NCBI GenBank assembly: GCA_021156175.1
Contig: JAJNBL010000002.1
Location: 197,029 to 261,028, forward strand
DNA length: 64,000 nt
Direction of reading: 5' to 3'
From: Rickettsiales bacterium
GTDB taxonomy: Bacteria > Pseudomonadota > Alphaproteobacteria > Rickettsiales > JAJNBL01
The notes beneath the pieces are model-generated. The model searched no databases. It worked only from the letters and a program-made list of their open reading frames with translations, and was not told the origin of the DNA. Within the stretch, counting starts at the first letter, position 1. Each line of letters opens with the position of its first letter. Of this stretch, positions 1,437 through 59,062 are shown in pieces. Both the position numbers and the translations under genes were made by a program.

Positions 1437-1558
1437 CTTTTCGCTAGGCTGAGTTGGAAAATGCCGTTTTTCCTTAAAGCCGGAGCGGAGCGTACTTCAA
1501 GGTATGTGAGCAACGGAAGTCAGGAAAACGGCATTTAACAACCAGCATTGTAGAAAAG
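1437..1558. repeat. nested-palindrome intergenic element, family A long form (copy A1)
   Basis: About 122 bp, near-identical in architecture to 45814-45935. Shared ends CTTTTCGCTAGGCTGAG...CAGCATNGTAGAAAAG. Core GAGCGTACTTCAAGGTATGTGAGC at 1488-1511. Arm 1459-1473 pairs with 1523-1536. Confidence 0.75.
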
Positions 1559-11685: not shown

Positions 11686-11737
11686 TCATAAACCTTCCGA
11701 TATTATGCCTTGTTCTCGTATTTATAAGGTTCTGTGG

Positions 11738-11862
11738 AGATTCAAAAAAATCATGAGGTGATTTTTAGGAATTTTCGCACGCAGAGCCGCAGTGTACATA
11801 AAAGTACATGAGGATTCGAGTACGAAAATGACGCAAAAATTGACCATGAGAATTTGAATATC
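11738..11862. repeat. diverged family-A-like nested palindrome (copy A5)
   Basis: Outer inverted repeat GAGATTCAAA / TTTGAATATC; inner arms AATTTTCG / CGAAAAT. Core GTGTACATAAAAGTACAT (11792-11809) resembles the A core. Confidence 0.5.
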
Positions 11863-11873
11863 TTGGAACCTAT

Positions 11874-12863
11874 ATGACAGAACATTCTTTTTTCCTCGAA
11901 TCCCCGACCGTAACCGTATCAGTACGCGACGTATTTGGCATTGATTCTGACCTCGAGGTCAAAGCCTTTAGCCAACCCAACGAATACGTACCAGAAATTG
12001 ATGCGGCCTATCGCTTTGATCGCGATACGACGTTAGCGATTCTGGCGGGATTCAGCCATAATCGCCGTGTGATGATCCAAGGTTATCACGGCACGGGGAA
12101 ATCCACCCATATCGAACAAGTCGCAGCACGCCTTAATTGGCCATGTATTCGGGTCAACCTCGATGGGAACATCACCCGGATTGATTTGATCGGGAAAGAT
12201 GCCATTACGCTCAAAGACGGCAAACAAATCACGGAATTCCGCCAAGGGATTATCCCGTGGTCACTGCATCATCCGGTCGCGCTCGTATTTGATGAATACG
12301 ATGCTGCACGCCCTGATGTGATGTTCATTTTACAACGATTGTTGGAACTCGATGGCAAATTCACACTGCTCGATCAAAACCGTGTGATTCGCCCGCACGC
12401 CTATTTCCGCCTTTTTGCAACGGCCAATACAATTGGCTTGGGCGATACGACCGGCCTTTATCACGGCACACAGCCCATCAACCAAGGCCAAATGGACCGC
12501 TGGAATATCGTCGCAACGCTGAATTATTTGCCCGCTGCGGAAGAAGAGCGCATCGTACTGGCAAAGTCGCCTTCGTATAATTCTACGGAAGGCAAAAAGC
12601 AGATCAGCCAAATGGTGGCGATTGCGGATCTCACCCGCCAAGGCTTTATCGCTGGCGATATTTCCTGCCTGATGTCTCCTCGCACCGTCATCACCTGGGC
12701 AGAGAATGCTCGTATTTTCGGTGATGCCGATACCGCTTTCCGTTTAACGTTCCTCAATAAATGTGATGAAATGGAGCGGAGCATCATTGCGGAATATTAC
12801 CAGCGCTGTTTTGGCAAGGAGCTAAACGGCTTCACAACCACAAAAGAAACGATGTTGGCGTAA
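11874..12863 (+). CDS. cobS: CobS-type AAA+ (MoxR-like) ATPase
   Basis: 329 aa; Walker [14 protein letters not shown], Walker [12 protein letters not shown]; followed by its VWA partner. Confidence 0.85.
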
Positions 12864-16961: not shown

Positions 16962-17016
16962 GGGAGACCTCTTGTCTTACGAATGGAACTGAGGTTTAAA
17001 TTTCCTAACACCTGAC

Positions 17017-17095
17017 GAAAAAAGGAGATTTCAAGACCTGTAGCGGAGCGTACCTTAAGGTACGTAAGCAACAGCAGCTTAAAAATCTCCTTTTT
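17017..17095. repeat. family A short form (copy A3)
   Basis: Core GAGCGTACCTTAAGGTACGTAAGC (17047-17069), flanked by GAAAAAAGGAGATTT ... AAATCTCCTTTTT arms. Confidence 0.7.
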
Positions 17096-17115
17096 GCAGT
17101 CCGTGACAGTAGAAT

Positions 17116-18519
17116 TTAAATATGAATCGCTTTGGAGAAGGCTGCTAGCGCTGCTTCTTTCACGGCTTCCGACAAATCCGGATGCGAGTGGCAGGTCCGC
17201 GCGATATCTTCCGAAGAGGCTTTATATTCCATCCCCAGCACCAATTCCGCCAAAAGCACACCGGCTTGCGGGCCAATAATATGTGCACCTAAAATCTGAT
17301 CGGTCTTTTTGCACGCGAGGATCTTCACGAATCCATCCGTATCCACGTTTGCACGCGCGCGGCTGTTCGCCAAGAAGGGGAACTTGCCCACATTATACTC
17401 GATCCCGGCTTCTTTAAGCTGCTCTTCGGTTTTACCGACCGCAGCGACTTCCGGATGGGTATAAATCACGCCTGGGACTTTATCATAATCCACGTGCCCT
17501 TTCTGACCCGCCATGATCTCTACCGCTGCAATACCATCTTCTTCGGCTTTATGTGCAAGCATCGGACCTGCAATTACGTCTCCGATCGCATAAATACCTT
17601 TCACATTGGTCTCGAAATGGTGATCAACGTTAATCCGGCCACGTTCGTCCTTTTGTACTCCCGCAGCTTCCAAGCCCAAACCATTTGTAAATGCCCTACG
17701 GCCAATCGCCACCAACACTACATCGGCTTTTAAGTTCTCTGCCGCTCCGCCTTTGGCAGGCTCTAATGTCAAGGTAACCGATTTCCCTGCCACTTTCGCA
17801 CCCGTCACTTTTGTGCCAAGCTTAAATATAACGCCTTGTTTTTCAAGAATTTTTTTGAATTCTTTACTCACTTCACCGTCCGATGTTGGCGCGATACGAT
17901 CCAAATATTCCACGACTGTTACTTCCGATCCCAAACGACGCCATACCGAGCCAAGCTCCAGGCCAATCACGCCCCCGCCAATCACCACCAATTTCTTTGG
18001 CACTTCCGATAACTCCAGCGCGCCGGTCGAAGACACAATCCGGTCTTCGTCAATCTCTACACCCGGGAGCGGCATCACTTCCGAACCCGTCGCAATCAGG
18101 ATGCGTTTGGTTTTAATAATATCCGATGCACCTTTCTCACCTTTCACTTCGACTTCGCCTGCGGATTTAATAATCCCGGTGCCTTTCAAATAGGTAATTT
18201 TGTTTTTCTTGAATAAGCCTTCGATGCCTTTGGTGAGGTTGGAAACTACGTTATCTTTGTTCCCCATCATCGCTTTAAGATCAAGCTCTAAGCCTTTGAT
18301 TTTAATCCCATGCCCTGCAAAATGCTTGCTCGCATCTTCAAATTTTTCTGAAGAATTCAATAGCGCTTTTGACGGAATACAGCCCACATTCAAGCACGTT
18401 CCACCCAATACTCCACGTTTCTCCACGCACGCGACATTCATCCCCAATTGCGCCGCTTTAATTGCTGCAACATAACCGCCAGGGCCACCGCCAATTACTA
18501 CGAGATCAAATGTCGTCAT
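17116..18519 (-). CDS. lpdA: dihydrolipoyl dehydrogenase (E3)
   Basis: 467 aa; FAD motif GGGPGGY and redox-active [13 protein letters not shown]. Confidence 0.96.
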
Positions 18520-18600
18520 TTTAGAGTACCTTTCTTTAGAACATTTTCACAATGCTTCTGAAATGTATCTCAGAAGCATTGTCTTACTATATCAATAAAA

Positions 18601-18616
18601 TGTTTCACGTGAAACA
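18601..18616. other. parS centromere-like site
   Basis: TGTTTCACGTGAAACA, a perfect 16-bp palindrome matching the parS consensus; extended palindrome 18599-18618. Confidence 0.85.
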
Positions 18617-18624
18617 TTCCGACA

Positions 18625-28104: not shown

Positions 28105-29139
28105 TTATTCTCCTTTTGCACATACACATTTTCCAAATTCAGCCGGGCAATTGTTGCCTCCTGAAGCTCTGGATATCGGTTTTTCTGAGTCTTTTAATCC
28201 CAAACATAGCGACGCCAATGACGCTATAAAATGCTCATTCACCCCAAGCGCTGGAACCCGCGCATAATAGGGTATTCCCACTTCTTCGGCTTTTTTCCGG
28301 TATTCAATATCCAGCTCCACGAGCGTCTCAGAATGTTCCGACACAAACGCCACCGGCACCACCACCACCGGAACATTATCCTTCCCCGCCCGCGCTATCT
28401 CATCCCCAAGTGATGGGCCTATCCAAGCCAGCGGCCCTACCCGGCTTTGATAACAAATCGCATAATCAAGTTTCTCGATATTTAAGCGTTTCACGATAGC
28501 TGCAACGGTTTGTTCCACCTGCCATTGATATGGATCTCCGGCTTTGACGATTTTTTCTGGCAAACCATGGGCAGAAAATAAAATGCGTGGATTTCCCTCT
28601 TTTTTTGTTTCCTCATAGACCGGCCGAAGTAATGTTTCATACGCTTCTATAAACGCAGGTTCTTGTGGATAACACCCTATCGCCTGGGTAGGAACATCCA
28701 GTCTTTGTGCTTTTGCTTGCTCGTTCCAATCGTCCAAAGAGGATCCGGTCGTAGTAGTCGAAAATTGGGGATAGAGTGGAAGGAGTATCACCCGATCCGG
28801 CTGGTAGGTCTTCACCTGCTTCACCACTTCTTTGCTCATCGGATGCCAATACCGCATCGAGACAAACACACGATAACCTGTTCCCAATTTTGCTTCTAAG
28901 CTTTGCGCTTGCGCTTGGGTGAGTGGCAAGATCGGCGATCTTCCTCCCATTTCCTGATAAATTGCTTGGGCTTTTTGATTCCGTCCGCGGGAAATTATTT
29001 TTGCCAGCAAAAACCGAAAAGGTTGAGGAAGTGCAATGATCGCTTTGTCGCTAAAAAGATTGAAGAGAAACGGCTTCACTGATTCCAGACAATCAGGCCC
29101 ACCTAAATTAAATAAAACTACCGCAACACGTGCATTCAT
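28105..29139 (-). CDS. hemH: ferrochelatase
   Basis: 344 aa; VVLFNLGGPD N-terminus; SAHGLP motif. Confidence 0.93.
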   Translation of the reverse strand: MNARVAVVLFNLGGPDCLESVKPFLFNLFSDKAIIALPQPFRFLLAKIISRGRNQKAQAIYQEMGGRSPILPLTQAQAQSLEAKLGTGYRVFVSMRYWHPMSKEVVKQVKTYQPDRVILLPLYPQFSTTTTGSSLDDWNEQAKAQRLDVPTQAIGCYPQEPAFIEAYETLLRPVYEETKKEGNPRILFSAHGLPEKIVKAGDPYQWQVEQTVAAIVKRLNIEKLDYAICYQSRVGPLAWIGPSLGDEIARAGKDNVPVVVVPVAFVSEHSETLVELDIEYRKKAEEVGIPYYARVPALGVNEHFIASLASLCLGLKDSEKPISRASGGNNCPAEFGKCVCAKGE

Positions 29140-30191
29140 GCCGCTTGTTTCCTTTTCCAGCTTCGCACGGTTTCGACCAACAGCTCAACATTTTCGATCG
29201 GCGTCGTCGGTAGAATCCCATGCCCTAAATTCACGATAAATGGCCCGTGTTTTAATGCTTCTAGCAATGAAATAATCTGATCCCGAAGCATCCCCTTTTC
29301 CGCAAATAACATCACCGGATCCAAATTCCCTTGCACCGGTTTCTTTGTTTGGAGCTGCTTTGCTGCCCATATCAGAGGAATGGTGGTGTCGAGACCTACT
29401 GCATCCACGCCTGTTTGCTTGAGATACGCTTCGTAATAAAACCCAGCGCCGCGTGGGAATCCGATGATAGGAATCGCAGGATGCCGTAATTTAAGCTTTT
29501 CTACAATTTTGCGCGTCGGTTCAATTACCCATTGCGAAAACGCTTCTTCGGGTAATACACCCGCCCAGGAATCAAACAATTGCACCGTTTCCGCACCGGC
29601 TTGAATCTGAAGCGATAAATGTTCGACCGTCGCTTCTATCAAAATATCGATCAATTTTCCAAATGCAGACGGTGTGGCATAAGCCCAACGTTTGCTTTCC
29701 AAAAATTCTTTGCTGCTGCCGCCCTCGAGCATATAGGTTGCTACCGTCCAAGGGCTTCCTGCGAAACCAATGAGGGTGGTGTGTGTGGGTAATTGTTGTT
29801 TGATTTCTGCGACTGCTTCATAAACGGGGGAAAGATGGGAAGCGATACGTTCAGGCTTTAATCCTGCTAATGCTTTTTCCGATGTGATTTTTTCGAGTAT
29901 CGGCCCTTTTTTCTCTTCAAAGGTCACATGCATGCCGAGTGCATCGGGAATCACCAAAATATCGGAAAATAAAATCGCTGCATCAAAACCAAAGCGACGA
30001 ATAGGCTGCAACGTCACTTCAGCCGCGAGTTTCGGTGTATAGCACATCTGTAAGAAACTGGAGACATCTTTTCTGATTTCACGATATTCCGGTAAATATC
30101 GTCCGGCTTGACGCATCAACCATAACGGAGGAGTATCAAGTTGTTTCCCCTTCAATGTCTCTAATAATGGCTTTCCAGTCTGCTTTACCAT
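29136..30191 (-). CDS. hemE: uroporphyrinogen decarboxylase
   Basis: 351 aa; PPLWLMRQAGRYLPEYR signature. Confidence 0.95.
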   Translation of the reverse strand: MVKQTGKPLLETLKGKQLDTPPLWLMRQAGRYLPEYREIRKDVSSFLQMCYTPKLAAEVTLQPIRRFGFDAAILFSDILVIPDALGMHVTFEEKKGPILEKITSEKALAGLKPERIASHLSPVYEAVAEIKQQLPTHTTLIGFAGSPWTVATYMLEGGSSKEFLESKRWAYATPSAFGKLIDILIEATVEHLSLQIQAGAETVQLFDSWAGVLPEEAFSQWVIEPTRKIVEKLKLRHPAIPIIGFPRGAGFYYEAYLKQTGVDAVGLDTTIPLIWAAKQLQTKKPVQGNLDPVMLFAEKGMLRDQIISLLEALKHGPFIVNLGHGILPTTPIENVELLVETVRSWKRKQAA

Positions 30192-30650
30192 GATGACACT
30201 CTACAATTTCCCACGTCTTTTTGAAAAGCCCTTATACATTTTTTTTCACGAGAAGTATCCTACTATCTAATAAGTATTTATTAGAGAAATAAAGTAGAGG
30301 TAATAGTTGTCCTTCCGGATATGGGGATACAATAGTTTACACGGAGTTTTCCACATAGTGATGGGAGTTGAAAATAGTTGGGGATAATTATGGGGATATA
30401 GAGTATAAGCTATTGTTATTGTATTAAAAATAATAGGGTTTATATATATAGTTATAAAGGACATTACTACTTACTCCCATTATCCCGATCCCTACTTAGC
30501 AACTTATCCTCAGGGGATAAATCATGAATCACTTGTGGTATTTTTGTTGAGAAAACCCCTTTAGCTGCGTAAGATCACTTTCGCACAGAGTTATGCAAGC
30601 GGTTATCCTCACGCTTATCCACAATTTTAGAAATAAATGATTTAACACCT
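30192..30650. other. candidate chromosomal replication origin (oriC)
   Basis: 459-bp non-coding gap between hemE and the RP001/PDRP homologue. Perfect DnaA box TTATCCACA at 30615-30623; at least 7 one- or two-mismatch boxes; AT-rich core about 30400-30470. Confidence 0.65.
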
Positions 30651-33475: not shown

Positions 33476-33553
33476 TTGGGATCGACAGAGAATAAAAAAA
33501 GCCCCATTCAAGGCTTTTACGCGTGTGGGTGCACGGTAGTTTATGGGAAGAAA

Positions 33554-33626
33554 TGGCTGGGGCGCCAGGATTGGCTTCGCCGTATCTCGGCCTGTTGGCC
33601 TCGTGGTCGAACGTCGTTCGAACCTG
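33554..33626 (-). pseudogene. partial, interrupted copy of the tRNA-Gln 3' end
   Basis: 33554-33572 is identical to the 19 nt at 33688-33706 (acceptor 3' strand, CCA and T-stem). TTCGAACCTG at 33617-33626 repeats the T-loop and stem. About 44 nt of unrelated sequence lies in between. Confidence 0.6.
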
Positions 33627-33687
33627 ACACTTAAAATCACTTAATAAAACAAGGCGCATTGTTATGCCTATGCCATGTTTTATTAAG

Positions 33688-33761
33688 TGGCTGGGGCGCC
33701 AGGATTCGAACCTGGGGTGGCGGGATCAAAACCCGCTGCCTTACCGCTTGGCTACGCCCCA
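33688..33761 (-). tRNA. tRNA-Gln (anticodon UUG), CCA encoded
   Basis: The reverse complement TGGGGCGTAGCCAAGCGGTAAGGCAGCGGGTTTTGATCCCGCCACCCCAGGTTCGAATCCTGGCGCCCCAGCCA folds as a cloverleaf. It closely parallels the E. coli tRNA-Gln(UUG) sequence as I recall it. Confidence 0.93.
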
Positions 33762-38742: not shown

Positions 38743-38783
38743 CGCTCTTTACTTTCTGTTAAAACGCAATTATGGCGAGGGAT

Positions 38784-38863
38784 TTTTTTGAAATCAGGTT
38801 CTTAAAAAGCGGAGCGTACTTAAAGGTACGTGAGCATTATTTAGGGTTCTGATTTCGAAAAAA
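38784..38863. repeat. family A short form (copy A4)
   Basis: Core GAGCGTACTTAAAGGTACGTGAGC (38813-38835), flanked by TTTTTTGAAATCAGG... / ...CTGATTTCGAAAAAA arms. Confidence 0.7.
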
Positions 38864-38882
38864 GCACCGGCAGAATTGTGTT

Positions 38883-39551
38883 TCAGCTGCTTGCCTCTGC
38901 AATCGCGCGGTTATAAGCAGCAACCGCCGCTTTCGGACCGTCTTTATGTTCCCATACGCCTGTAACGACCGCTAAGAAATCCGCTCCGGCGTTGACCAGT
39001 GGCGCGCAATTATCCGGCGTGATGCCACCAATCGCGCAGACCGGAAGTTCGGTGTGGGTCGTCCACCAGGAGAGGATCGAAGGATCCGGGCGGCCTTTAG
39101 GCGTTTTGGTTTTGGTGGGATAAAATGCGCCGAATGACACATAATCCGCATCCTGTTCGCCAGAGGCCATCGCAAAATCACGTGAGGCGTAACAGCTTGT
39201 GCCAATCACATAATCCTTGCCCAAGTCTTTGCGAATCTTTGACACAGCATGATCGCGCAAACTTTCTTCGCTTAAGCCCACATGTACACCGTCTGCACCG
39301 AGTTTTTTTACCAAGTTCGGTCGGTCGTTAATGATCAGTGCAATGCCCTGTTCGCGGCACAAAGGGAGGAGCGCTTCAGCCGTGCGGGAAATAGCACTAT
39401 CATTGGCAGGTGTATCGTTATCGTCTTCTTTCAAGCGCACCTGGAGGCAGGCAATATCGCCGCCATCGCGTGCTTTTTTAAATTCTTCGACCAACGTATT
39501 CAAAGCAAAACGTGGCGGAGTGATGAGATAAAGACGGCAAGCTGGCAGCAT
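38883..39551 (-). CDS. thiE: thiamine-phosphate synthase
   Basis: 222 aa; LYLITPP start, GADGVHVG and GGI motifs. Confidence 0.88.
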   Translation of the reverse strand: MLPACRLYLITPPRFALNTLVEEFKKARDGGDIACLQVRLKEDDNDTPANDSAISRTAEALLPLCREQGIALIINDRPNLVKKLGADGVHVGLSEESLRDHAVSKIRKDLGKDYVIGTSCYASRDFAMASGEQDADYVSFGAFYPTKTKTPKGRPDPSILSWWTTHTELPVCAIGGITPDNCAPLVNAGADFLAVVTGVWEHKDGPKAAVAAYNRAIAEASS

Positions 39552-45752: not shown

Positions 45753-45813
45753 AATATATTTACCCCCACCCAAATTCTGCTAGGATGCAGCCGAAATACC
45801 TTAAGATAACGTA

Positions 45814-45935
45814 CTTTTCGCTAGGCTGAGCCGGAAAATAGTAATTTTCCTAAAGCCGGAGCAGAGCGTACTTAAGGGTACGTGAGCACAGGAAGTTAGG
45901 AAAATTACTAGTTAACGGCCAGCATAGTAGAAAAG
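45814..45935. repeat. family A long form (copy A2)
   Basis: Same ends and core as 1437-1558. Arm TAGTAATTTTCC (45839-45850) pairs perfectly with GGAAAATTACTA (45899-45910). Confidence 0.75.
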
Positions 45936-45940
45936 AAACC

Positions 45941-46954
45941 ATGCGTATCCTAGCCATTGAGAGTAGCTGTGATGAAACCGCGGTCGCGATTGTAAGCGAT
46001 ACCCGCGAAATCCTTGCGCATACGGTCGTTTCCCAATTAGAAGAACATCGCCCCTATGGTGGTGTGGTGCCGGAGATTGCAGCCCGGTCGCATATTATGC
46101 ATCTGGATCAGCTGGTTGCAAAGACATTGAAAGATGCTGGTTTAAGTTATTCCGATCTCGATGCGGTGGCGGCAACGGCGGGCCCAGGATTGATTGGTGG
46201 CGTGATGGTAGGCGTGATGACCGCCAAAGCCATTGCGAGTGCGGCTTCCCTTCCCTTCATCGCTGTGAATCACTTAGAAGGCCATGCGCTGACCATTCGC
46301 CTCACCGATAACCTTCCCTTTCCTTATCTTCTCCTCCTTGTTTCCGGCGGGCATTGCCAATTATTGGCGGTGGAAGATGTTGGAAAATATCAGCGCTTAG
46401 GTTCTACGATCGATGATGCGCTTGGGGAAGCTTATGACAAGGTCGCGAAGATGCTGGGTTTGGGTTATCCGGGAGGTCCCAAGGTTGAGCAATATGCGCT
46501 TAAAGGCAATGCGAAGCGTTTTGCACTCCCTCGGCCATTGCTTGGGCGCCCAGACTGCAATTTTTCTTTTTCCGGCTTAAAAACGGCTGTTAAACGCGAA
46601 GTAGATGCATTGGGCGAAGGACTTTCCAGGCGAGATGCAGAAGATATCTGTGCCTCCTTCCAAGCGGCGATTGGTGATGTGCTTAACGATCGCGTTGCTC
46701 GGGCGTTAGTGCAGTTCTCAGCACTCTATCCCGATGCAAGACGCTTTGTCCTTGCGGGTGGCGTTGCGGCAAATCAGTATATCCGTGGAAGGTTAGAGTC
46801 GTTATTACGCGATCACGGATTTACACTTCATGCCCCTCCTCCGGCATTATGTACGGATAATGCCGCAATGATCGGTTGGGTCGGAGTAGAACTCTTCACC
46901 CGCGGCATTACCCATGACCTCGATATCGGCGCGCGCGCCATGTGGCCACTGTAG
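45941..46954 (+). CDS. tsaD: tRNA N6-adenosine threonylcarbamoyltransferase TsaD
   Basis: 337 aa; [15 protein letters not shown]-terminus; NHLEGH metal motif. Confidence 0.94.
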
Positions 46955-47079
46955 AGCATTTTCCATTTCCGTATATAGGTTGTCGGGCATCGGATTTGTC
47001 GGTCTGCACGTAGATTGACTACGCTTACGGCCTCCTCAGCTTGCGCTTCTAGTCTATACGGAAAGCGAAAGCGCTCTTA
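46952..47079. repeat. family B element, inverted copy (B2)
   Basis: Its reverse complement aligns over about 128 bp with 2632-2758. Its first 3 nt are the tsaD TAG stop codon. Confidence 0.8.
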
Positions 47080-47876: not shown

Positions 47877-47897
47877 CTGTAAAATAAATTTACCAAA

Positions 47898-47913
47898 TGT
47901 TTCACGTGAAACA
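47898..47913. other. parS centromere-like site
   Basis: TGTTTCACGTGAAACA; extended 22-bp palindrome 47895-47916. Confidence 0.85.
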
Positions 47914-47920
47914 TTTTAGA

Positions 47921-54465: not shown

Positions 54466-54531
54466 GTGGTTTTCTGATATATGGTTCTTCCACTTTAAAA
54501 TTCCTCATGGCTGTAATGGATTTACAGAAAA

Positions 54532-54547
54532 TGTTTCACGTGAAACA
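54532..54547. other. parS centromere-like site
   Basis: TGTTTCACGTGAAACA; extended 24-bp palindrome 54528-54551. Confidence 0.85.
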
Positions 54548-54593
54548 TTTTATTACCAAGATTAACGATTGAATCCCCGGGAAGCGTAAAAAT

Positions 54594-56510: not shown

Positions 56511-57171
56511 GATACCTCCTACGGTAAAAGCACAAATTGATAAATATATTAGTGAAAATGTTTCACGTGAAACATTTGAGCGTCTCGATCAGTATGTCGT
56601 TGATCTTTTGCAATGGAACCAATCGATCAATCTTATCGGCAAGAATACGGAAGTTATGATATGGGATCGGCATATTTTAGATTCCGCCCAACTGCTTTCG
56701 CATATTCCTGAGCACACAAGAATCATTACAGATATCGGAAGCGGTGCGGGATTGCCCGGAATGGTGCTGGCGATTCTTGGGAATTTTTTGGAAGTACATT
56801 TAGTAGAAAGTGATCGAAGGAAAGCTCTGTTTTTGGAGGCGGTTGCTCCGCTTGGAGGAGATACGCGAGTGATCGTGCATAAGAGCCGGGCTGAAATTTT
56901 GGGTGCATCCGCGACATGGGAAAGCGATGTTATCACCGCGCGGGCCTGTGCGCCGCTTACCACATTGTTAGAACTTATCTCTCCTTTTATAGAAGGTAAG
57001 CAAAAAAAATGCTTATCACTCCTCCTAAAAGGGAGTAGTGTGGAGAAAGAGTTAGAGGAAGCAGCGCGTAAATGGAATATTCTTTCGTATGATGCCCATC
57101 CCAGCATTACACATGACGAGGGGCGAATTTTGGCGATTCAGGAATTTCATCTGCGTTCTAAAACCTCTTAA
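56497..57171 (+). CDS. rsmG: 16S rRNA (guanine527-N7)-methyltransferase RsmG (GidB)
   Basis: SAM motif [10 protein letters not shown]. Start ambiguous (ATG at 56476, 56485 or 56497). Contains a parS site read as NVSRETF. Confidence 0.88.
56559..56574. other. parS centromere-like site inside the rsmG coding sequence
   Basis: TGTTTCACGTGAAACA, identical to the four intergenic copies. Confidence 0.85.
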
Positions 57172-58037: not shown

Positions 58038-58972
58038 TCCCAGGGAAGAATCAAGGTTTAGGCAAGGGGTTGGCTGCGCTCATTGGCGATATTGAAGAAG
58101 AAACAATTGCCATAGAAAAAAGCGGGCGCGTACCGCCGACCGTTGAACGGAGAAAAGGGGAGTGGCAAGTCGAATTCCTTTCCGTGGATTTGCTTGAGGC
58201 GGGGCCGTATCAGCCACGCGCCTATTTTGACGAAGAGGCACTTCGCGAACTTGCGGATTCTATTAAAGAGCGCGGAGTGTTGCAGCCGGTGGTCGTTCGT
58301 CCGATGGGAGGAAATGGAAAACATCCGATTATTGCGGGAGAGCGCCGGTGGCGTGCTTGTCGGTTAGCGGGACTTTCCGTGATTCCAGCGATCGTTCGGG
58401 ATCTTACCGAAAAAGAAGCGCTGCAAGTTGCACTGATTGAAAACATCCAACGTAAAGATCTTACGATTGTAGAAGAAGCAGAAGGGTATAGCCGACTGAT
58501 TGAGGAATTCTATTATACCCAAGAACAGCTTGCCGACCAGTTAGGGAAAAGCCGTAGCCATATCAGCAATTTGCTGCGTTTGTTGCAATTGCCGGACGAA
58601 GTGAAAAATATGCTCAATGATGGGGTGCTCTCAATGGGGCATGCGCGGGCGTTACTCAATGCACATAATCCTTCCGAGGTGGCGCGTTCGATTGTTGCGC
58701 GAGGATTAAATGTTCGGCAAACGGAAGCTTTGATGCGCGGCGAGGCGTTGGACAAGGAACATGAGCGTCAGGATCGGAACCGCCAACCCTTCGGTGGAAA
58801 AGTACAAAAACCCAAAGACGAAGATTTGGTACAGCTTGAGCAAATGCTTTCCGAGCGGATGGGATTGCCGGTCACTATTTATGAACAAGAAAAAGGTGGT
58901 CAAGTGCAAATCCAATTTAGTAATCTTGAAGAGCTCGATAAAATTCTTCAACGCCTTACCGCCACTGTCTAA
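58034..58972 (+). CDS. parB: chromosome partitioning protein ParB
   Basis: The track ORF starts at 57926. I prefer the ATG at 58034 (ATGA overlap with the parA stop; N-terminus MIPGKNQGLGKGLAALI). ParB box GERRWRA; HTH segment. Confidence 0.93.
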   Translation: MIPGKNQGLGKGLAALIGDIEEETIAIEKSGRVPPTVERRKGEWQVEFLSVDLLEAGPYQPRAYFDEEALRELADSIKERGVLQPVVVRPMGGNGKHPIIAGERRWRACRLAGLSVIPAIVRDLTEKEALQVALIENIQRKDLTIVEEAEGYSRLIEEFYYTQEQLADQLGKSRSHISNLLRLLQLPDEVKNMLNDGVLSMGHARALLNAHNPSEVARSIVARGLNVRQTEALMRGEALDKEHERQDRNRQPFGGKVQKPKDEDLVQLEQMLSERMGLPVTIYEQEKGGQVQIQFSNLEELDKILQRLTATV

Positions 58973-58974
58973 AA

Positions 58975-58990
58975 TGTTTCACGTGAAACA
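58975..58990. other. parS centromere-like site
   Basis: TGTTTCACGTGAAACA, starting 3 nt after the parB stop. Confidence 0.88.
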
Positions 58991-59062
58991 TTTGGTTAAC
59001 AAAATTAATTGGGAGGGGCTGTATAGCCTCTCCTTTTGTACAAATAGGAATGAGTAAAACAA

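Follow-up and report, generated by a model that had tools for sequence, protein, structure and literature searches.

Two intergenic elements of about 122 bp, each forming a nested palindrome, lie in a 64,000-nt stretch (hereafter the window) of contig JAJNBL010000002.1 from a metagenome-assembled genome (MAG) labelled Rickettsiales bacterium (GCA_021156175.1, positions 197,029 to 261,028). One stands inside a flagellar gene cluster, between fliE and fliQ, and the other precedes tsaD. In a preliminary description, their internal arms were seen to differ in sequence while remaining complementary, which was taken as a sign of selection on a folded RNA or on folded single-stranded DNA. This raises the question of what such elements are: signals acting on the genes that follow them, inert palindromes, or members of a mobile repeat family. 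The analysis reported here shows that they constitute a new subfamily of a widespread, largely unannotated superfamily of hairpin repeats.

The two elements (copies 1 and 2, subfamily A; Table 1) align with a mean column identity of 87% over 147 columns, short flanks included. Their shared ends (CTTTTCGCTAGGCTGAG ... CCAGCATWGTAGAAAAG) and shared core (GCCGGAGCRGAGCGTACTT..GGTAYGTGAGCA) were correctly described at the outset; these patterns are found two or three times, for a shuffle expectation of 0.05-0.23. The view of the element as a pair only has, however, to be abandoned. A 24-nt core, GAGCGTAC-N5-GGTAYGTRAGC, has four matches in the window with 0-1 mismatch, one in each of copies 1-4 and none on the - strand. 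Moreover, a covariance model (CM), built as had been suggested, from an alignment of 60 alphaproteobacterial copies, and run on the window with filters off, recovers five copies, all on the + strand and distributed among three subfamilies. The four core-bearing copies score 50-105 bits. The fifth, which is degenerate and absent from the training set, carries the core CAGTGTAC..GTACATGAGG (11790-11813), in which a C-G pair of the apical stem is replaced by U-A, a compensatory change. Over the five copies, the sense strand of the element scores 36-105 bits and the antisense strand 10-20 bits. For the exact subfamily A, no third copy was found: scanning metagenomes with the 5′ end particular to this subfamily yielded a single match, attributable to chance, inside a coding region. 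The condition raised at the outset, that only two copies might exist, does not hold for the superfamily.

On the + strand, copy 1 folds with an energy of -53.3 kcal/mol (z = -7.4) and copy 2 with -53.7 kcal/mol (z = -8.7), values equalled by none of 200 shuffles; for the window copies as a whole, z-scores lie between -5 and -9. When the folds are read on the alignment of the two copies, seven base pairs are seen to have changed on both sides. Five of them are consecutive pairs of the inner arm, which remain Watson-Crick (UGCCGU/ACGGCA in copy 1, UAGUAA/UUACUA in copy 2); the two others belong to the lower helix (UU/AA versus CC/GG). The same behavior is observed at the level of the family. RNAalifold predicts 33 pairs from the 60 alphaproteobacterial copies, with compensatory double changes in 25 of them. 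In this alignment, 92% of the cells are paired, as compared to 77% in column shuffles and about 32% in controls where partners were slid, and double-change cells number 290, as compared to 106 in shuffles, none of 500 reaching the observed value. These data support the conclusion that the arms of copies 1 and 2 are not independent flanking sequences and that pairing is what is conserved.

One of the two strands is clearly favored. The - strand folds of copies 1 and 2 are 6-13 kcal/mol worse (-40.1 and -47.5 kcal/mol, respectively) because several pairs of the + strand are G.U. Among 121 copies, the sense strand is the better folder in 113. The preference persists when the core is swapped for a neutral loop, the arms then favoring the sense strand in 90 cases versus 30 (Wilcoxon p = 2e-11), and when DNA energy parameters are used (103 versus 18). 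Thus, as regards the proposed selection on a folded RNA or single-stranded DNA, the conservation of pairing and the choice of one strand stand, but covariation is unable to discriminate a folded RNA from a folded DNA strand.

On its favored strand, the element is a single long imperfect hairpin with a strongly conserved tip. The tip comprises a 6-bp stem, GCGUAC/GUACGU, with a G.U closing pair; each strand carries a tandem GA, and a GC/GC clamp is present in most cases. The apical module of copy 1 has a 6-bp stem closed in the same way, the GA tandems and the clamp. Below the tip, the helices are free in sequence as long as they are paired, and are split by a few conserved internal loops (e.g., CGAAAA...UUUGCAG). 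The joints between nested covarying helices, CGAAAA / UUUGCAG and GGCYGAG / CCRGCAU, are themselves conserved. Conservation is layered as in an onion: the ends are the most variable part, the outer layers are genus-specific and the inner layers are kept. In copies reached by routes other than the exact core (copy 5 of the window, one copy from Agrobacterium vitis and one from Sphingobium), the apical stem is kept, with small differences. Several known motifs were compared with this architecture and dropped. A k-turn would require another bulge length, the conservation of an integron attC site is at its base and not at its tip, and CsrA is not known from most alphaproteobacteria. A group II intron domain V and a dif/Xer site were also considered and set aside. 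Finally, a likeness to the 23S sarcin-ricin loop extends to 14 of 17 bases, with about 0.4 such matches expected by chance.

A scan of one genome per species with the exact core gave at least 119 loci (designated L below); a hand estimate puts the chance matches over the entire collection at about 17. Roughly half of the matches listed are from Mesorhizobium, Brucella/Ochrobactrum, Phyllobacteriaceae and other Alphaproteobacteria. The window copies resemble the Mesorhizobium, Brucella/Ochrobactrum and other alphaproteobacterial elements at ~80% over 57-80 nt, well past the core. Still among the matches listed, long hairpins that have the core at their apex and unrelated arms occur in Rhizobiales, Sphingomonadales, Bacillota, Actinomycetota, Chloroflexota and others. 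The core is found in isolates of Paenibacillus and Desulforudis as well as in MAGs of Bacillota, Actinomycetota, Chloroflexota, Polyangiales, Syntrophales, Nitrospirota, Spirochaetales, Rikenellaceae and Gamma/Betaproteobacteria. Outside the Alphaproteobacteria, the same core thus sits at the tip of hairpins with lineage-specific arms. The arms alone fold with z < -3 in 28 of 53 non-alphaproteobacterial matches (6 of 6 tested in Actinomycetota, 1 of 8 in Paenibacillus), and two core matches (L033, L105) resemble chance matches. The CM built from alphaproteobacterial copies scores many non-alphaproteobacterial elements over their full length, with 30-48 bits. Two arm motifs, CGAAAA...UUUGCAG and GCAAGG opposite AACGCAG, recur across phyla when the arms are read by eye. 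Furthermore, in an ungapped alignment, the 4-bp helix directly under the core covaries across phyla (48 double-change cells versus 16.7 in shuffles, 0 of 500 reaching the observed value).

These elements have largely escaped annotation. Rfam 15 (4227 covariance models) gives nothing at gathering score in the window or in 18 loci, and the hits on the elements at E values up to 10 are noise; the L2-Alphaproteobacteria leader, for instance, was rejected at 15.5 bits for a cut-off of 37.8. In the PLSDB records of Sphingobium, Shinella, Agrobacterium vitis, Ensifer and Bosea, related elements are present and never annotated. When the literature was searched for the core, written as DNA or as RNA, only unrelated primers came up. 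Three viral contigs carry the core, all with the alphaproteobacterial type of element; a phage vector is not supported.

Some individual loci deserve mention. Locus L115 ('Bacillus subtilis SK6B4' contig00007) holds a Brucella/Ochrobactrum-type copy with Rhizobiales-type arms and is probably an alphaproteobacterial contaminant of the assembly. On the chromosome of Paenibacillus sp. D2_2 (L044, 6549-6662), an element of the Paenibacillus type occupies the spacer from mraZ to rsmH (mraW), where the division/cell-wall cluster begins. Pairs of elements in tandem and in the same orientation are found at L022 (5541-5759 and 5771-5905) and at L050 (582-763); one member of the L022 pair reaches 219 nt owing to a large insertion within it.

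Evidence for gain or loss of an element comes from megaplasmids of A. vitis, where a 39-nt spacer between two co-oriented genes exists in filled and empty states. Strains S4 and CG78 have a 142-nt copy at this site, which is empty in VAT03-9, F2/5 and VAR03-1; the flanks are 90-96% identical. The insert runs from AAAAGTCTGT to ACAGACTTT, which form a perfect 9-bp terminal inverted repeat at the base of the hairpin. It is bounded by ACGGT and CAGATTTT, is antisense to the operon, and leaves a target duplication of at most 1 nt. This site records one clean gain or loss without target duplication. In Sphingobium plasmids (L124-L128), a single intergenic site shows three states: the element, a 10-12-nt remnant of its right end (CCCGCACATCC-TAG), or a different palindromic element of ~120 nt at the adjacent TAG. 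This site is a hot spot for the turnover of small elements. At a Phyllobacterium site, the element stands in place of ~50 nt. For the window itself, a syntenic empty site was sought via TsaD; the nearest relative has 76% identity and a different synteny.

The preferred reading, to which we give about an even chance, is that the elements are non-autonomous, hairpin-dependent mobile repeats of ~120-150 nt, members of a large superfamily. They would be related to Bru-RS-type elements and, possibly, to ERIC (see below). In this mechanism, a putative trans-acting factor encoded elsewhere would recognize, on one strand in its folded form (most likely single-stranded DNA), both the tip and the shape of the hairpin, and would copy or move the element into short intergenic spacers without target duplication. 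Copies whose pairing is lost would no longer be propagated, and stems would thus be kept paired. New subfamilies would arise from master copies carrying paired changes, and the 'compensatory substitutions' between copies 1 and 2 would have this origin. Because of their place inside operons, a few bases from start codons, the copies would also be transcribed and might, as a side effect, act on mRNA decay or translation in the way reported for ERIC. We infer the existence and the nature of the trans factor, as well as the choice of DNA rather than RNA as its substrate. The best analogy for the factor would be a single-strand transposase of the HUH/Y1 type, because REP/RAYT and IS200/IS605 systems combine a single-stranded DNA hairpin as substrate, the lack of target duplication and a partner encoded elsewhere.

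Several observations weigh against this reading. Mobility is based on the single clean filled/empty site of A. vitis, those of Sphingobium and Phyllobacterium being messy. No transposase, integrase or Y1/RAYT gene is found among the 40 open reading frames (ORFs) scanned in the window, as had been reported, and Pfam searches on ten neighbors from six phyla detect no mobility genes. Brucella is not known to carry RAYT-type genes, which matters if its copies are Bru-RS elements. The copies were gathered with an exact core pattern, so that the 100% conservation of the apical stem is partly built in. The conserved internal loops, with their G.A and G.U pairs, are equally suited to RNA. As to replication, a weak bias places the sense strand on whichever strand is locally C-rich (77 cases versus 39); it is opposite to that of IS608-type elements, and a replication-strand bias of this kind does not fit an IS200/IS605-type model; the replication-strand signal as such is weak. 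Finally, the window copies are in the + orientation whichever side of the origin region they lie on (Table 1).

The search for a partner was extended to the surroundings of the elements. All-against-all clustering of the ORFs of the 119 listed loci reveals no recurrent neighbor gene; the clusters correspond to common housekeeping families and to spurious ORFs overlapping the elements. Likewise, no parent insertion sequence with matching ends was found near the elements.

The strongest alternative, which we consider somewhat unlikely, is a functional RNA in operon transcripts. The hairpin would control mRNA decay, processing or translation of the neighboring genes, and its position relative to the start codon and its Shine-Dalgarno overlap would be the very point of the element. 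Copy 1 ends 7 nt before the ATG of fliQ and copy 2 ends 5 nt before that of tsaD, in agreement with the preliminary description. For copy 5, the CM hit stops 5 nt short of the ATG at 11874, the hairpin itself ending at ~11863. In the three sense copies of the window, the copy or the CM hit thus stops 5-7 nt upstream of the next start codon. In addition, the Shine-Dalgarno-like AAGGA attributed to the end of copy 1 is at 1555-1559 and straddles this end. Copy 1 starts 13 nt past the fliE stop codon, within the range over which ribosome stalling at REP sequences has been reported (cited in PMC5082802). The folding advantage of one strand through G.U pairs, and the conserved internal loops with tandem G.A typical of RNA motifs, also argue for an RNA. 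Moreover, ERIC, the closest described analog, alters transcript stability in an orientation-dependent manner (PMC2229807, PMC10969869).

The orientation of the elements is, however, difficult to reconcile with such a role. The constant orientation relative to the downstream gene, described for copies 1 and 2, is true of these two copies and is not a property of the family. In the window, three copies are sense and two, copies 3 and 4, are antisense. Across genomes, the co-directional spacers contain 19 sense and 21 antisense elements, and elements are also found in convergent (18) and divergent (13) spacers. The orientation of the element is unrelated to gene direction. No intrinsic terminator, defined as a GC-rich hairpin followed by a T-run, is present at copies 1 and 2 on either strand, and matches to promoter consensus sequences at the elements are at shuffle level. 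Random orientation and the lack of terminator or promoter consensus argue against an RNA dedicated to cis regulation, and also against any fixed placement with respect to the downstream gene. The same tip is found across phyla beside unrelated housekeeping genes, which is unfit for gene-specific regulation, no Rfam family matches, and the A. vitis copy was gained or lost within an operon in antisense orientation. A gene-specific riboregulator of fliQ or tsaD is thus not supported. Individual sense copies, such as copies 1 and 2, may nevertheless have an RNA role. At fliQ, the Shine-Dalgarno region is overlapped by the hairpin base, which lies 13 nt past the fliE stop. Transcript-level effects have been shown for ERIC in Yersinia and for REP in E. 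coli.

A further alternative, which appears improbable, is that the elements are inert relics, passive palindromes in which template switching or arm-to-arm repair (quasi-palindrome correction) copies changes from one arm to the other. It would easily explain why copies 1 and 2 differ by a block of five adjacent pairs, more readily produced by templated copying than by stepwise mutation. The deletions at the hairpin base and the remnants at the Sphingobium site, as well as the variation of the outer layers by genus while the inner layers are kept, point in the same direction. Such a process predicts, however, Watson-Crick pairs that serve both strands equally, yet the sense strand is favored by G.T/G.U pairs, even when the arms are considered alone. 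The direction of this asymmetry is not that of the replication-linked C-to-T bias. Conserved unpaired loops and a tip common to several phyla need selection or recent spread, and the clean 142-nt insertion or excision in A. vitis points to an active process.

Lastly, explanations by chance, by faulty assembly or by a Rho-independent terminator or promoter element of the ordinary kind, which might come to mind for intergenic hairpins (often terminators) in a MAG, are effectively refuted by the five copies in unique gene contexts on one contig, by the same family in complete genomes of cultured isolates, by the fold z-scores and by the lack of T-run and of terminator consensus, with promoter matches at shuffle level.

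The positions of the window copies and of other features of the window are collected in Table 1. The spacers that house the five copies measure 140-188 nt, are nearly filled by the element and all separate co-directional genes. Pfam identifies FliE, FliQ, FliR, FlhB, Edd and Eda around copies 1 and 2, and TsaD was identified by a separate comparison, in line with the gene assignments first made. The neighbors of copy 3 resemble dihydrolipoamide dehydrogenase and Mur ligase genes; its outer stem contains the stop codon of the upstream gene.

Table 1. Hairpin elements and other features of the 64,000-nt window (positions counted from its first letter).
Feature	Position	Strand	Description
Copy 1 (subfamily A)	1437-1558	+	122-nt nested hairpin, fliE-fliQ spacer, sense to both genes; CM hit 1429-1566, 89.5 bits
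Copy 1, apical module	1484-1512	+	AGC-GGA-GCGTAC / loop / GTATGT-GA-GCA
Copy 1, helix P3 (variable), 5′ arm	1459-1473	+	Partner 1523-1536; five consecutive pairs changed on both sides relative to copy 2
Copy 1, helix P3 (variable), 3′ arm	1523-1536	+	From alignment and fold
Copy 2 (subfamily A)	45814-45935	+	122-nt nested hairpin, eda-tsaD spacer, sense to both genes; CM hit 45806-45943, 99.3 bits
Copy 2, apical module	45860-45888	+	Core match
Copy 3 (different subfamily, same modules)	16994-17121 (approx.)	+	Antisense, between two minus-strand genes; CM 105.5 bits
Copy 4 (third subfamily)	38758-38887 (approx.)	+	Antisense, between minus-strand glyoxalase II-like and thiE-like genes; CM 50 bits
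Copy 5 (degenerate)	11736-11863	+	Sense to flanking genes; CM hit 11732-11868, 36.4 bits, E = 9e-8
Probable replication origin	29136-30650		460-bp non-coding gap beside hemE (URO-D)
parS-like palindrome, five copies	18598-18618, 47895-47917, 54529-54552, 56556-56578, 58970-58993		AAATGTTTCACGTGAAACATTT
Family-B repeat, two copies	2635-2758, 46952-47075		124 nt, inverted orientation, 85% identity
Direct repeat, 22 nt	33551-33572, 33685-33706		95% identity
tRNA gene	33691-33761	-	Sole tRNA gene of the window

The chromosomal replication origin is probably included in the window. The minimum of the cumulative GC skew falls at ~30-32 kb, and gene orientation flips at the putative origin linked to hemE; alphaproteobacterial origins are usually located beside this gene. 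The five perfect palindromes of Table 1 enclose TGTTNCACGTGAAACA, the canonical ParB binding site parS. They gather around mnmE-gidA-gidB-parA-parB, at 53-59 kb, and were taken, together with this gene cluster, as a marker of the origin region. All five element copies are on the + strand, on both sides of this putative origin and with both gene orientations; the two-sided probability of such an arrangement by chance is ~0.06, with too few copies for interpretation.

Two other repeats were observed. Family B is unrelated to the hairpin elements, and its copies stand directly past the stop codons of fliR and tsaD, so that each subfamily-A copy has a family-B copy one or two genes downstream. The family-B folds are moderate (z = -3.4 and -1.6). 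The 22-nt direct repeat overlaps the 3′ end of the tRNA gene; its two units, ~134 bp apart, look like the scar or the attachment-site pair of an integrated element.

It remains to compare the elements with described repeat families. REP and REPIN sequences, whose partner is a RAYT (Y1, HUH) protein, are likewise dispersed, multicopy, extragenic hairpins. Strand-specific recognition of a single-stranded hairpin is their proposed mode of propagation, they make no target-site duplication, and the REP partner gene is present as a single copy elsewhere in the genome; no RAYT gene is found among the ORFs scanned in the 64-kb window. REP sequences are, however, 20-40 nt long and bear at one end a conserved tag, GTAG or CGTC (PMC3733652), whereas the elements studied here are single hairpins of 122-150 nt. 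GTAG does occur near the 3′ end of window copies 1-3 and is absent from the Mesorhizobium-type consensus. In REPINs, the arms are conserved and the loop is free, while here the tip is conserved and the arms are free. In two Mesorhizobium loci of different species (L082, L110), a separate GTAG-tagged REP-like hairpin of ~25-30 nt (TCAGTTCTACYGCG...GTAGAAC) is inserted at the same spot, just 3′ of the core GTGAGC, and L015 has a similar CTAC...GTAG hairpin after ACCGG. REP sequences may thus enter preferentially at this spot.

Classical MITEs (miniature transposable elements with inverted repeats), such as Correia, RUP and Nezha, are also small, non-coding, AT-tolerant and intergenic, fold as long hairpins and differ in presence or absence from strain to strain. 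In MITEs, the terminal inverted repeats, which are the transposase binding sites, are preserved, the interior varies and target duplications are made. In contrast, the elements described here have ends that are their least conserved part, no duplication and no parent insertion sequence that could be found. CIR elements (named for their association with CcrM) are alphaproteobacterial intergenic repeats too (Caulobacter, Brucella), of ~110-150 bp. They consist, however, of two arms and a linker with a conserved GANTC (PMC2229807), whereas copies 1 and 2 are one hairpin and lack GANTC. The definitions of REP/REPIN, of classical MITEs, of CIR and of terminators each fail on at least one tested feature. 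The palindromic elements of Rickettsia are alphaproteobacterial, as is the Rickettsiales-labelled MAG of the window, but they are often in frame inside genes, whereas all five copies here are intergenic.

Bru-RS1, Bru-RS2 and RIME, palindromic intergenic repeats of ~100 bp from Rhizobiales, come closer. According to PMC3163539 and PMC10800456, the Bru-RS elements measure 103 and 105 bp, are mutually related and are hot spots for IS711 at YTAR sites. Brucella/Ochrobactrum loci carry two related, unannotated element subtypes, with which the window copies align at 80-92% over 39-80 nt. CTAG is found in the window copies. By description, the Brucella/Ochrobactrum members are probably Bru-RS1/2. 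Bru-RS and RIME were presented as genus- or order-specific families, and a conserved tip, a strand asymmetry or a spread across phyla are not mentioned in the Bru-RS/RIME literature examined.

ERIC, also called IRU (127 bp), offers the most extensive likeness. Like the elements described here, it is one long imperfect hairpin of similar size, whose central inverted repeat is the most conserved part and whose periphery is freer. A 44-mer of this central repeat, the basis of the ERIC1R and ERIC2 primers, is found exactly in 5424 of 5426 complete E. coli genomes. ERIC occupies short transcribed intergenic spacers in either orientation, as do the window copies in their co-directional spacers, with transcription presumed here. 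It has no known partner gene, and none was found beside the present elements. The tips can be compared directly: CCCCAG-GA-GCTTAC-ATAA-GTAAGT-GA-CTGGGG in ERIC versus CCGG-A-GC-G-GA-GCGTAC-N5G-GTACGT-GA-GC-A-CCGG here. Both show tandem GA on both strands around a 6-bp stem with a G.U closing pair, and these stems are one compensatory pair apart. ERIC also displays strand asymmetry (-52.3 versus -38.2 kcal/mol). The CM built from alphaproteobacterial copies aligns the E. coli ERIC over its full length and on the right strand, although weakly (12.6 bits, E = 0.007 in 844 nt). Clear differences should, however, be noted. blastn finds no match between ERIC and any of the elements, and none in the arms; ERIC lacks the GC/GC clamp and the bulged G. 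It is characterized by TA target duplications and 7-bp terminal inverted repeats (PMC2229807), but neither the window copies nor the A. vitis insert shows a duplication; the flanks read ..ATA and GAT.. on the two sides of copy 1, ..GTA and AAA.. on those of copy 2. ERIC has, furthermore, been reported solely from Enterobacteriaceae and Vibrionaceae (PMC10969869). ERIC is therefore best regarded as the nearest functional and architectural analog and a possible distant relative; the copies are not assigned to the ERIC family.

Palindromic intergenic repeats are usually seen as lineage-specific clutter, named separately (ERIC, Bru-RS, RIME, REP) and for the most part without a known mode of propagation. 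The copies of this Rickettsiales-labelled MAG suggest another picture, in that one strand-specific hairpin plan and a near-identical tip of 24-30 nt are common to elements of many phyla. This tip is absent from Rfam and from the genome annotations examined, and, as far as the accessible literature shows, its conservation across phyla and its likeness to the ERIC core are undescribed. If the tip is a recognition site, it would provide a handle on the trans-acting factor, thousands of elements could be annotated, miscalled ORFs would be avoided and ERIC could be read anew. In the present genome, hairpins located within flagellar and other operons, a few bases from start codons, may modulate expression whatever their origin. 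A bolder proposal, which we advance tentatively, is that ERIC, the Bru-RS-type repeats, the window copies and the unnamed hairpin repeats of Bacillota, Actinomycetota, Chloroflexota, Myxococcota and other groups form one ancient or horizontally spreading superfamily. The near-invariant tandem-GA/GCGUAC tip might then be the docking site of a single widely conserved protein that copies from one folded strand. If this were true, the 35-year-old question of the identity and movement of ERIC would become testable, both through comparative genomics, by asking which gene accompanies the tip, and through pull-down experiments using the tip hairpin.

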